In this document: in pieces, positions 747 to 16,904 of the stretch
How positions within the stretch are numbered: position 1 is the first letter of the stretch
Layout of the letters: every line of letters starts with the position of its first letter
Virus record (IMG/VR): IMGVR_UViG_3300020045_002896
Coordinates: 1 to 28,842 of that record
Length of the DNA stretch: 28,842 nt
Strand: one strand, 5' to 3'
Source: a virus
Lineage: Duplodnaviria; Caudoviricetes
Program-made: the position numbers and the translations under genes
The notes under the pieces: generated by a model
The model's database searches: none
What the model saw: only the letters and a program-made list of their open reading frames with translations
What the model was told of the DNA's origin: nothing

Positions 747-819
747 AAGAACAGCAAGGATAGCAGAAGCCCACGCCAAACAAAACTTATAAGGCATTGC
801 AACGTTAAAAACATTAACA

Positions 820-931
820 ACTTAATCATCTACGCCTGGCAAGCCAACCTAGTAAAATGTGTAATCCATTTCAAGCTACGTTATGCAAAGTAGCGAAATA
901 GCGTCAAGGCGCTGGGCGCAGGTGATTAAGT
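820..931 (+). ncRNA. Candidate structured RNA (long closing stem with a multibranch interior)
   Basis: 820-840 pairs with 911-931 (21 positions, 3 G-U, 1 mismatch). Inner hairpins at 855-871 and 875-894. Confidence 0.55.
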
Positions 932-946
932 AGATAAAGGAGTAAG

Positions 947-1012: not shown

Positions 1013-1234
1013 ATGAAAAAATCAATCGTAAAAGAAGTAAAACAAGAAGTAGCTGCAAAAAAGGCGGCCGACAAACAACCAAAATCAATTAAATTAACAA
1101 CTTTAATTCTAATAACTGTATCAATGACGATCGGTGGAATTATCGGCATCTACGGCTATAAAACAGTAAATACTTACATTAATAACCAAGTTCAGTCACA
1201 AGTTAAGAGTTACCTAAACGACCAGTTAAAATAA
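1013..1234 (+). CDS. Single-pass membrane protein; N-terminal part of a probable frameshift fusion
   Basis: Basic N-terminus followed by a hydrophobic helix LTTLILITVSMTIGGIIGIYGY; RBS AAAGGA. Confidence 0.8.
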   Translation: MKKSIVKEVKQEVAAKKAADKQPKSIKLTTLILITVSMTIGGIIGIYGYKTVNTYINNQVQSQVKSYLNDQLK

Positions 1235-1289
1235 AAAAGGGTGCGACAATTAACGCTAAAACGCAATTTAAAGCCCTTGTAAGCGTTGA
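1225..1289 (+). promoter_or_regulatory. Putative -1 ribosomal frameshift signal (slippery site plus pseudoknot)
   Basis: G TTA AAA then TAA. Stem 1237-1242/1273-1278 with inner TGCG/CGCA. Loop 1250-1257 pairs with 1282-1289. Confidence 0.65.
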
Positions 1290-1626
1290 AGATGTAAAAG
1301 ACGATATAACTAGTACATTTATAGAACAACCAACCACAGACGTTGAGCAAATAGTCAGAAATGCCGCTAATAAATATGGCATAGACGAAGATAGTTTTGT
1401 CCAGCTAATTCAATGCGAAAGTAGTATGAATAGCGACGCAGTAAACTATAACTATTACGAAAACGGCTATCCGAGTGGATTAGCGCAACATTTAAGCGGT
1501 TACTATCCTGCGAGGGCGTTAAAATATGGATATAGCACAGACGTGTTCGATCCGTATTCTAACGCAAATGTAACCGCAGCGATGATTGCCGACGGATTAT
1601 CAAATTTATGGGAGTGCAAAATATGA
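1231..1626 (+). CDS. Lytic transglycosylase (SLT/lysozyme-like) domain, probably reached by a -1 frameshift from 1013..1234
   Basis: Frame open 1207-1626: IVRNAANKYGID...LIQCESSMN..AVN...SGLAQ...VFDPYSNANVTA. No ATG/GTG/TTG before 1426, which is downstream of the catalytic ES. Confidence 0.8.
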   Translation: MKKGATINAKTQFKALVSVEDVKDDITSTFIEQPTTDVEQIVRNAANKYGIDEDSFVQLIQCESSMNSDAVNYNYYENGYPSGLAQHLSGYYPARALKYGYSTDVFDPYSNANVTAAMIADGLSNLWECKI

Positions 1627-3384: not shown

Positions 3385-3858
3385 ATGAAGATTTATAAAA
3401 CACAGCAAGAAGTAGAAAAAGATATTAAAGACGGAGTAATAACAATTCAAGGTGATGTTAAATTTGAGTGTTCAATCTCGATTAATGCATCAATTATTGT
3501 CACCGCTGGGAAAATCACCGCTTGGAACATCAACGCTGGGGACATCGACGCTGGGAACATCAACGCTGGGAACATCAACGCTGGGAACATCAACGCTGGG
3601 AACATCAACGCTGGGAACATCAACGCTGGGGACATCAACGCTAGGGACATCGACGCTGGGGACATCTTATATTATGCGTTTTGTGGAGTCTATAATTCAA
3701 TAAAATGTCTATCAATCAAAGCTAAAAGAGAAATACATAGCGAGCCTATTTGTTTAGATGGTGAATTGACTATTAAAAAAGAAGAAGTCGATAATGCCAC
3801 TAAAGAAGCTATGGAATTATTGCAAAAAAATGGCTATAAGATAGTAAGGGGGAGATAA
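3385..3858 (+). CDS. Pentapeptide (N/D-I-N/D-A-G) repeat protein, probable beta-solenoid
   Basis: RBS AAGGGG; about 10 tandem 5-aa repeats. Confidence 0.75.
   Translation: MKIYKTQQEVEKDIKDGVITIQGDVKFECSISINASIIVTAGKITAWNINAGDIDAGNINAGNINAGNINAGNINAGNINAGDINARDIDAGDILYYAFCGVYNSIKCLSIKAKREIHSEPICLDGELTIKKEEVDNATKEAMELLQKNGYKIVRGR
3511..3666 (+). repeat. 15-bp tandem repeat, about 10 units (AACATCAACGCTGGG)
   Basis: Five identical consecutive units at 3556-3630 with degenerate flanking units. Confidence 0.97.
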
Positions 3859-5599: not shown

Positions 5600-5706
5600 C
5601 TGAAATAGATATAGATAAACTATCAGAGTATCTATCAACATATATGTGTTGGCCAAAAGAAGAGATAAAAATGTTAATTAATGAATATATAGAAAGTGAG
5701 AAATAA
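5596..5706 (+). CDS. 36-aa hypothetical protein
   Basis: RBS GAGG; ATGA overlap. Confidence 0.55.
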   Translation: MTEIDIDKLSEYLSTYMCWPKEEIKMLINEYIESEK

Positions 5707-5707
5707 C

Positions 5708-5971
5708 GTGAGTGGAACTAAAATCGGAGCAAAAAAAACAGCCGCTAAAAACTTAGCAAAAGACCCTAATTTTTATAGGACTATCGGTTCTAAAGGTGGA
5801 AAACACACTGGAGATAAAGGGTTCGCACTAAATAACGACAGAGCAATCGCAGCAGGCGCTAAAGGTGGATCAAAAAGCCGTCGAGGATATAAGTTGATTA
5901 AAGAGACAATGTTTTCATTTCACTATATCCAAACGTCAACTGGCAAGATTGTAAAATTTAAGAAAATCTAA
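5708..5971 (+). CDS. KGG-repeat (stress-induced/GsiB-like) protein
   Basis: SGTKIGAKK...FYRTIGSKGG...GFA...AIAAGAKGGSKSRRG. GTG at 5708 follows the previous stop. Confidence 0.75.
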   Translation: MSGTKIGAKKTAAKNLAKDPNFYRTIGSKGGKHTGDKGFALNNDRAIAAGAKGGSKSRRGYKLIKETMFSFHYIQTSTGKIVKFKKI

Positions 5972-15266: not shown

Positions 15267-16904
15267 ATGAGCAATAATTTTAAAAAAGTAATAGATAGAC
15301 AAATGTGGGTGCAAGTAGCTCCTACTCCTAACGCTCACGCTGCTGGTATGAGCCTTGCAGTTGATTTAAGAAATGATGTATCTCGCAACCCATTTGTTTA
15401 TCAATTAGCCTCTTCGACCGTATTAAATAGGTATAATTTCATATCTAAAGCTTGGAACTTTATGCAATCACCAGGACTAGGCGGTACGTTTGGCGCTGGA
15501 ACTGGTGCAGTATTCGCTCCGTCACAAAGCCTAACTGGTAGTATTGGAGTTGGTTCGTCAACTACTTCTATAGTTACAACAACTGTTATGACGGCAGTCG
15601 GTGTAAATATGCTAGCAAACAGAGGTGGTTCTGGTGATTATGGCTTTAAAATAATGATTAAAGGTAATGCTGCTGGAAGTTCAGGGAAAATTGAAGAACG
15701 TTGGATAATTGGCAACACTGGCGGAACAACTCCTACGTTAATCCTAGATACTCCGCTTACATTTACTCCTGCAAACGGTGATACCTATGAGATATTATCT
15801 GGTAGGTTATTTATGCTTAACGCTGGTACGTTGGCAGCAACGTCATTTAGGTCATTTGAAGTTGCCACAAACTTACTAGCTTCGCTATCAAACACTAACT
15901 TACCGGCTACAGTAGCAACTGATTTTTCAGGTATTGCGCTTGATGAACAGTATGTTCCATACAATAGAAAACCAGGTGAGGGATTTGTTGTTGGAGCTGG
16001 AACTTATGACCTAGAGTGTTCCTGTGGAGTTAAGAATTGCCTTACTGCAACTGCAACGGCAGCAAGTTCAATTTCTGGTCAGGCTAGTGGCGGTGATTTT
16101 GGCGTATTAACTAATGAATATCGAAATTTCCAAATTAGAATCGTAGAGGATACAGCTATCCCAACTGCAGTTGGTCAACGACGAATTGTTGCATCACATA
16201 CAGGTGGAACTCTAGGCTCTTATGTAACACCTGTTTACACATTAGGTAGTGCTTGGGCGGTTCAACCATCGGCTAATGCAAAATTCGTTATTGAATATCC
16301 AAATTTATTGTTAGTTTGGTCAAGTGCGACGGCAGTAACTTATACATACAATTATGGTACTGCAACGATAAATAATGGAACTAACTCAATTGCAAATAAT
16401 GCATGGCACGTTACTTATTTTGGAAACAGAGGTGGCAATATGGCTGCTGGTTGCACTACGTTTGCTTCGTTTGGCATCCAACCTGATGCTGGTAAAAATG
16501 CTAGACACTCATTTATATATTCATTTAGAGGTGGTGCATCTACATTAGACGTATTAGATATTTCCGGTGGAACTACTGGCGCATGGTCTAACGCTGTTGT
16601 TTATGATGGTTTAGTATCACTAACAACAGGTTCATGCGGAAAATATGCGCCATTTGATAATGAGGGCAAATTTGGTTACCTAAACTCATATACTGCATCA
16701 GCGATTAACCAAATATACAGATTTGACGTTAAAAACAGGGTGTTAAGTCCATTTACGCCTACTGATTGGATTCAGTCTGGTACTGCTGCTGCTGGTGACA
16801 GAGTAGCTACTTATTGTGCAATAGATGGTGATGAAAAATACACAGTTGGATTTTTAATGGCTCATACATCAACAATTAGCCAAGAGATTGTGGTACAAAT
16901 GTAA
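15267..16904 (+). CDS. Large beta-rich putative virion appendage or adhesin protein
   Basis: 545 aa rich in G/S/T/A with propeller-like spacing of aromatic strands. Confidence 0.55.
   Translation: MSNNFKKVIDRQMWVQVAPTPNAHAAGMSLAVDLRNDVSRNPFVYQLASSTVLNRYNFISKAWNFMQSPGLGGTFGAGTGAVFAPSQSLTGSIGVGSSTTSIVTTTVMTAVGVNMLANRGGSGDYGFKIMIKGNAAGSSGKIEERWIIGNTGGTTPTLILDTPLTFTPANGDTYEILSGRLFMLNAGTLAATSFRSFEVATNLLASLSNTNLPATVATDFSGIALDEQYVPYNRKPGEGFVVGAGTYDLECSCGVKNCLTATATAASSISGQASGGDFGVLTNEYRNFQIRIVEDTAIPTAVGQRRIVASHTGGTLGSYVTPVYTLGSAWAVQPSANAKFVIEYPNLLLVWSSATAVTYTYNYGTATINNGTNSIANNAWHVTYFGNRGGNMAAGCTTFASFGIQPDAGKNARHSFIYSFRGGASTLDVLDISGGTTGAWSNAVVYDGLVSLTTGSCGKYAPFDNEGKFGYLNSYTASAINQIYRFDVKNRVLSPFTPTDWIQSGTAAAGDRVATYCAIDGDEKYTVGFLMAHTSTISQEIVVQM

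Follow-up and report, generated by a model that had tools for sequence, protein, structure and literature searches.

Annotated phage frameshifts are almost all those of tail chaperones (2,397 of 2,476 in the accessible part of PMC10274946), and the accessible part of PMC5009743 names tail chaperone, capsid and tail cases. The term ‘transglycosylase’ has no use in the former text portion; ‘holin’ and ‘endolysin’ have none in the latter. The frameshifts of lambda G/GT, T7/T3 gene 10, Lactobacillus A2 and Listeria (PMC5009743, same portion) yield a short and a C-terminally extended product in a fixed ratio and are conserved despite low protein similarity, both of which hold, at the level of predicted products, for the split phage gene family described here. 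The cases reviewed in that portion build virion or tail-assembly proteins, whereas the split phage gene pairs a membrane anchor with an enzyme predicted to lyse peptidoglycan, and frameshifting thus appears to dose a wall-cutting membrane enzyme. Signals of the IS3 family (PMC4066793, accessible part) share with our loci a four-base A-site motif and a pseudoknot 5-8 nt downstream. According to the same source Z_ZZN tetramers shift only when a strong stimulator is given, and with the IS3 pseudoknot frameshifting amounts to 0.26-5.6% in E. coli, the stimulator-dependent A_AA.A being the weakest of six tetramers. The split phage gene differs from these signals in that it is an envelope gene instead of a transposase gene, in that its P-site codon is nearly always NYA, and in that an upstream SD-like element (4-20 nt before the site) was found in 0/32 split loci. 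No report of a frameshifted phage transglycosylase was found in the literature searched; supplements (e.g. GeneTack cluster tables) and subscription papers could hold one. The mechanism is of a known kind; what appears to be new is the class of gene, the family of N_NYA_AAA sites and the group of hosts.

The window, i.e. the whole stretch of DNA analysed here, is an entire virus record of 28,842 bases in which terminase, major head and tail-fibre genes are present. The split gene sits on the + strand among small genes, with a VRR-NUC nuclease gene before it and YopX genes after it. It differs in position from the tail chaperone gene G/GT, which lies between the major tail and tape measure genes and encodes soluble products; the split gene is located ~5 kb before the terminase and its ORF1 carries a transmembrane (TM) segment. 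Also among the small genes are a pentapeptide-repeat protein and a KGG-repeat (general stress-type) protein, at 3385-3858 and 5696-5971, respectively.

ORF1 (1013..1234, +), the 0-frame product, is identified by sequence and family alignment as a 73-aa single-pass membrane protein with a basic N-terminus, a PKSIK motif, a predicted TM segment at about residues 28-49 (1094..1159, +; hydropathy 2.15) and a short helix. The basic N-terminus points to an N-in/C-out topology. At 1223-1234 the frame ends with CAG TTA AAA TAA, comprising the putative slippery site G_TTA_AAA (1225..1231, +; A_AAA tetramer at 1228-1231), which is backed by the split relatives, and immediately 3' of it the stop codon TAA (1232..1234, +). 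An open -1 frame runs from 1207 to 1626 and encodes a match to the SLT domain PF01464 with an E value of 3.4e-7 (30.3 bits, cut-off 21.3). From 1207 to the CES motif it is without a standard start codon, the first ATG, GTG or TTG following at 1426. A slip at 1228-1231 would join the 73 residues of ORF1 to 131 residues of the -1 frame (linker plus SLT domain; 1231..1626, +), which gives a predicted fusion of 204 aa. An earlier note, made from the letters of this DNA, had claimed this ORF end, an open -1 frame with an SLT-like domain, a catalytic ES motif upstream of any standard start and a fusion of ~204 aa, and each of these four points was confirmed, as were all its coordinates. It is highly probable that programmed -1 frameshifting joins the TM ORF and the SLT domain.

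Our case for frameshifting is built on relatives. Loci L001-L068 from four scans were combined with the window; after 11 duplicates had been dropped, and with 6 missed by the motif pattern, 52 distinct loci were available, namely 33 split, 11 continuous, 2 host RpfB-like and 6 uninformative ones (mostly cut short upstream). Split calls were automated for 32 loci and made by eye for L035, in which ORF1 is cut by the contig end; continuous calls were automated for nine loci and made by eye for two. All 33 split loci show the TM ORF and the SLT frame overlapping in -1 phase, and the same phase, together with the slippery motif, is seen in four of four further split loci (L045, L046, L099 and L101), L102 being continuous. 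The sole +1 TM ORF observed lies upstream of the continuous locus L011. The earlier note had named homologues that are always continuous as evidence that would speak against a frameshift; this is not what the relatives are like, given 33 split loci among 52. It had also pointed to related phages as the place to find the same split, slippery site and covarying pseudoknot, and all three are present there. Statistics below refer to 32 split loci (L005 was omitted, its junction being identical to that of L004), which form 25 clusters at 70% identity.

The ORF1 proteins of the relatives are only 12-38% identical to that of the window (29-protein alignment). Single-protein searches with ORF1 recovered no relative and homologues were found by the profile alone: built from 29 ORF1 proteins, it matches 375 clusters, and the best 150 of the 375 are all 58-93 aa long. 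ORF1 is without a family in Pfam, PHROGs and the Atlas. The family, with at least 375 sequence clusters, is annotated in databases as a pair of unrelated, truncated genes. Neither the TM-profile matches nor a (weak) search for longer versions contained an in-frame TM+SLT form, and this suggests selection for the ratio or for the short product. In GenBank cultured phages only three distant virion SLT matches were found. Two identical continuous forms, L064 and L065, lie 38 kb apart on one contig of a Saccharibacteria MAG (G004 contig C2, 105345 and 143268); the pair is a tandem or terminally repeated prophage.

Within the last seven codons of ORF1, NYA_AAA occurs in 30/32 split loci and in 14/215 other ORF ends of the same loci (Fisher p 1e-25), and the looser NNA_AAR in 31/32 versus 46/215 (Fisher p 3e-17), both p values being inflated by the kinship of the loci. 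The full form N_NYA_AAA is found in 30/32 and G_TTA_AAA in 13/32. Since the P-site codon varies among TTA, TCA, GTA, CCA and ACA, selection acts on the bases and not on one amino acid. Perfect X_XXY_YYZ heptamers are present in just seven of the 32 loci, as T_TTA_AAA (5) and C_CCA_AAA (2). The window's own G_TTA_AAA is an intermediate type and not a canonical heptamer; the G_UU(A) type is listed among frameshift sites in the accessible part of PMC5009743. Of the classic layout proposed in the earlier note, slippery site, spacer and pseudoknot are retained; the site itself is instead an IS3-like A_AAA tetramer after NYA. The motif also extends to TM homologues outside the profile: [LSVPT]K is found in the last seven residues of 124/136 of these new proteins versus 69/330 other phage ORFs, and of only 22/136 one window further upstream. 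L015, L017 and L038 are exceptions to NYA_AAA, with other tetramers nearby (A_AAG, T_TTT, T_TTA); the AAA codon is absent in L038, and in L017 a stem pair fits better, by eye, with a slip at T_TTT six bases upstream.

Downstream of the site, an H-type pseudoknot finder, whose geometry was set after the sequences had been inspected by eye, gave p <= 0.05 in 27/32 split loci (60 dinucleotide shuffles each), leaving 5/32 without a significant pseudoknot; in terms of sequence clusters this corresponds to 20/25. With synonymous recoding of the -1 frame as control, 22/32 loci are significant. The mean score is -20.1 versus -4.5 in the next 70 bases, and a comparable score at matching offsets was seen in only 1/11 continuous loci. 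Out of sample the finder scored two of four split loci (L099 and L101, but not L045 and L046). Median dimensions are 6 nt for the spacer, 7 bp for stem 1, 6 bp for stem 2 and 10 nt for loop 3, and stem 1 includes the ORF1 stop in 17/27 loci. In a 30-row alignment based on sequence only, 67.5% of cells are paired versus 54.8 +/- 1.7 after shuffling (0/500 as high) and 24-40% in slid controls, with two-sided changes in all 11 pairs; the structure was taken from one aligned sequence, L004, and scores of this type are inflated by kinship among the sequences. With dozens of naturally occurring, covarying pseudoknots and the unusual N_NYA_AAA site, the family provides a test set for bacterial recoding rules, including those of the reduced CPR ribosomes.

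In the window itself the predicted H-type pseudoknot extends over 1237..1289 (+) and is backed by finder score, covariation and synonymous recoding. Its score is better than in 60/60 dinucleotide shuffles and reaches p 0.007 against 300 synonymous recodings, while a nested fold of 1232-1300 is unremarkable (z -0.06); the signal appears only in pseudoknot-aware tests. The stem 1 core (1242-1245/1262-1265, +) is extended either by 1238-1240/1267-1269 or by an outer helix (1237-1241/1274-1278), and stem 2 pairs 1250-1257 with 1282-1289 (+). Stem 2 is strong and stem 1 weak. The outer helix is the more stable extension, with -7.0 versus -1.7 kcal/mol for the family-like stem, but a three-helix version would have only 3 nt (1279-1281) to span ~9 bp, compared with the family's median loop 3 of 10 nt. 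The window's stem 1 therefore has two alternative folds, and the spacer measures 5-10 nt, depending on the fold. All pairings listed in the earlier note (1237-1242/1273-1278, 1242-1245/1262-1265 and 1250-1257/1282-1289) were found in the sequence, and the pseudoknot score of the window is beyond chance. What sets the note's three-helix version apart is the 3-nt loop 3 and an outer stem that is atypical of the family. The window's pseudoknot, notably its outer stem, is atypical of the family.

As to the mechanism, we consider it very probable that the A-site tRNA-Lys would re-pair from AAA to AAA while the pseudoknot ~6 nt downstream holds the ribosome, as in IS3-type Z_ZZN signals. The yield is likely to be low, a few percent of ribosomes; this is inferred from A_AA.A being the weakest of the six tetramers working in E. 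coli. With good confidence the fusion would adopt an N-in, C-out topology, placing the SLT domain on the outer side of the membrane, a setting that would allow its two invariant Cys to pair. The best explanation overall, and the one we moderately favor, is that low-level frameshifting would supply much bare anchor and a little tethered enzyme, whose predicted task is to loosen the wall while the phage grows and not to bring about lysis.

The SLT lytic transglycosylase domain (1354..1596, +) is supported by the PF01464 match, invariant columns, the MltC alignment and the predicted fold. The ES motif is invariant in 43/43 aligned sequences and its Glu (1417-1419, +) aligns with the catalytic position of MltC. 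The structure model has a pLDDT of 86.5 and its top Foldseek rows are MltE, MltC and Slt with probability 1.0, at weak E values (0.01-1 versus lytic transglycosylases overall, 0.01-0.1 for the top rows). With family 1 lytic transglycosylases (E. coli MltE and MltC, Pseudomonas Slt and MltF, EtgA) the phage SLT shares PF01464, the fold (TM by query ~0.6), the MltC-aligned ES motif and a GLxQ-like motif. It differs in being a minimal domain of ~95 aa with two invariant Cys (codons 1414-1416 and 1615-1617, +; invariant alignment columns), and in that its predicted tether is a TM segment, joined only through a frame change, and not a lipoprotein anchor. The SLT half is without a signal peptide of its own. 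A hydrophobic signal-like segment opens all 11 continuous relatives (secreted forms), which implies that the enzyme is normally exported, and the two invariant Cys would suit an exported domain.

A second group of related proteins comprises the RpfB-like proteins of Saccharibacteria (TM, DUF348, G5, SLT; L054 and L067), to which SLT subfamily and membrane anchoring are common. In the host the gene is continuous, with DUF348/G5 spacers, whereas a short linker and the recoding site characterise the phage gene; DUF348 and G5 are absent from both halves of the window's gene and present in L054. Over 98 aa, the SLT domain shares 52% identity with its counterpart in an RpfB-like protein of DUF348/G5/SLT architecture. 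The host protein L054 groups among the phage rows in the SLT tree, in which L060 is labelled continuous although it is RpfB-like. As this tree is poorly resolved (8/41 branches well supported), no order of events is claimed. Rpf genes are enriched in oral Patescibacteria according to the accessible part of bioRxiv 10.1101/2025.03.10.642329.

What the enzyme is for is a matter of lower confidence. Our tentative reading, to which we give somewhat less than even odds, is that a small dose of membrane-tethered enzyme loosens the wall and is made alongside an excess of bare anchor. In this scenario, held equally tentatively, frameshifting would throttle a self-harmful autolysin at a fixed ratio to the anchor and serve local wall loosening in mid-infection, similar to the host RpfB-like protein. 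A scan of 95 ORFs (mainly from 177 candidates, plus some added) in nine related phages and prophages identified late-region endolysin-type domains in five of them: M23 in G007 and G008, an amidase in G010, and CHAP in G011 and G001, with two of the five matches falling slightly short of the Pfam cut-off. The scanned ORFs of G006, G009, G012 and G002 contained none, nor did the window up to its end. Because separate endolysin candidates occur in five of nine relatives, the SLT probably does not serve as the main endolysin. The earlier note had placed the gene far from the lysis genes; this holds in these five relatives, while the window's contig, which is maybe incomplete, shows no endolysin.

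This distribution also bears on the reading as a frameshifted lysis protein, in which the fusion would be a signal-anchor-release (SAR) endolysin or a lysis helper and the short product a holin-like partner or timer. SAR endolysins consist of an N-terminal TM segment followed by a muralytic domain, and spanins can comprise a small TM/helix protein overlapping a second frame. The predicted fusion resembles the former and the layout of the split gene the latter, with the differences that the second frame has no lipobox (by eye) and that in the split gene a basic N-terminus of 15-30 aa precedes the TM segment. Lambdoid phages keep their lysis genes between NinG-type genes and the terminase, and the split gene is likewise located between NinG/VRR-NUC genes and the terminase. 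In many members the TM segment is rich in Gly, Ala, Ser and Thr, and the lack of an endolysin in the scanned ORFs of the window and four of the nine relatives would also fit. Nevertheless, the M23, amidase and CHAP candidates, as separate genes, follow the tail genes in G007, G008, G010, G011 and the G001 prophage, and matches to holin and spanin families are no better than chance among 29 TM proteins. We regard a lysis role as unlikely.

Less likely again is superinfection exclusion or receptor masking, whereby the abundant short protein would block DNA entry and the rare fusion would alter the wall. A small single-pass phage membrane protein that is present in prophages, and whose gene is preceded by a strong ribosome-binding site and a structured RNA, would suit such a role. 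The gene, however, is aligned with the recombination and YopX genes of the lytic direction and does not stand apart as a moron, a wall-cutting enzyme is no obvious block to entry, and no paper joining these terms was found in the literature searched.

Explanations that dispense with frameshifting fare worse. In one of them the SLT domain would be an independent gene, translated by coupling from its own GTG, TTG or non-standard codon, with the RNA structure having another role, e.g. in mRNA stability. Databases do call SLT-only proteins of ~80-130 aa, and a GTG or TTG precedes CES in 30/32 split loci. These candidate starts, however, vary in position from 5 to 58 codons before CES, and neither the window nor L048 has one. 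The -1 frame is always open back beyond the slippery site: over 1028 summed codons from the ORF1 stop to the first standard start it contains 0 stops, compared with 8.2% in the other two frames. One weak promoter-like site is present at 1203-1232, but promoter matches are below chance (1 versus 4.8 expected), and the product would be without an export signal. Two independent genes are thus improbable. An assembly or sequencing indel, a pseudogene or RNA polymerase slippage, for which the window offers short A runs at 1228-1231 and 1233-1238, is hardly credible, because phase, motif and structure recur in 25 clusters and many independent assemblies including isolate genomes, which excludes assembly error, no in-frame TM+SLT form was seen, and most relatives have only four A's while polymerase slippage normally needs a longer A run. 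Stop-codon recoding was ruled out as well, the SLT domain being in a different frame and ORF1 ending with TAA or TAG.

The host of the window phage is likely a member of the Saccharibacteria, as suggested by matches of its head, portal and tail proteins and by locus L063. The major head protein has matches in 4/401 genomes of a class holding a Saccharibacteria MAG (best 48%) and in 0/301 genomes of a Micrococcaceae sample; the portal and tail proteins have matches in a prophage region of that MAG, on a contig of 279 kb, and L063, a split locus, is found in another Saccharibacteria MAG (7-kb contig). The split cassette is also present inside prophages of two Micrococcaceae chromosomes, Paeniglutamicibacter (L062, G001) and Arthrobacter (L066, G002), both with siphovirus-type genes. 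These two prophages and that of L007 (G005) are ~40 kb long with ~50% GC, set in chromosomes or flanks of 65-69% GC. In genomes the cassette is rare (SLT profile matches in 3/401 and 1/401). Its presence in these prophages and in probable Saccharibacteria phages may reflect exchange between phages of the epibionts and phages of their actinobacterial hosts. The cassette links Saccharibacteria phages, the RpfB-like wall enzyme of their hosts and actinobacterial prophages, and because two cultured Micrococcaceae carry it, it is testable without growing CPR cells. A more far-reaching scenario, which we consider doubtful, is that Saccharibacteria phages captured the catalytic domain of the host RpfB-like protein and use frameshifting to present it as rare enzymatic heads of a bare-anchor oligomer, so that the infected epibiont would open the actinobacterial wall and draw nutrients for the phage, the cassette moving between epibiont phages and low-GC actinobacterial prophages together with an undescribed structured RNA.

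That RNA, a structured non-coding RNA supported by covariation and model search, is located at 816..935 (+) of the window and consists of a long stem (~22 bp), a T-loop-like hairpin and a variable arm. A model from seven loci found five more distinct loci (L038, L005, L007, L020 and L001) among 67 sources; it always lies upstream of a split gene and in 0/11 continuous loci. In the alignment fitted to the model 96.5% of cells pair and 25/29 pairs change on both sides. No Rfam match was obtained for it. Between this RNA and ORF1 the window has a tiny ORF of 20 codons with a strong ribosome-binding site (947-1009); the equivalent position in L010 holds a longer ORF that starts similarly. Other long hairpins fill the 250 bases upstream of ORF1 in L004, L014, L017, L022, L038, L053 and L066; several are parted by a ATTAACAA linker and some have tRNA-like loops, while ARAGORN identified no tRNA in eight loci. 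These hairpins may be arrays of small RNAs. Elsewhere in the window, a 545-aa structural-region protein (15267-16904) is 79% identical to one in G010, which shares few other proteins with the window, and this suggests a recent module swap.
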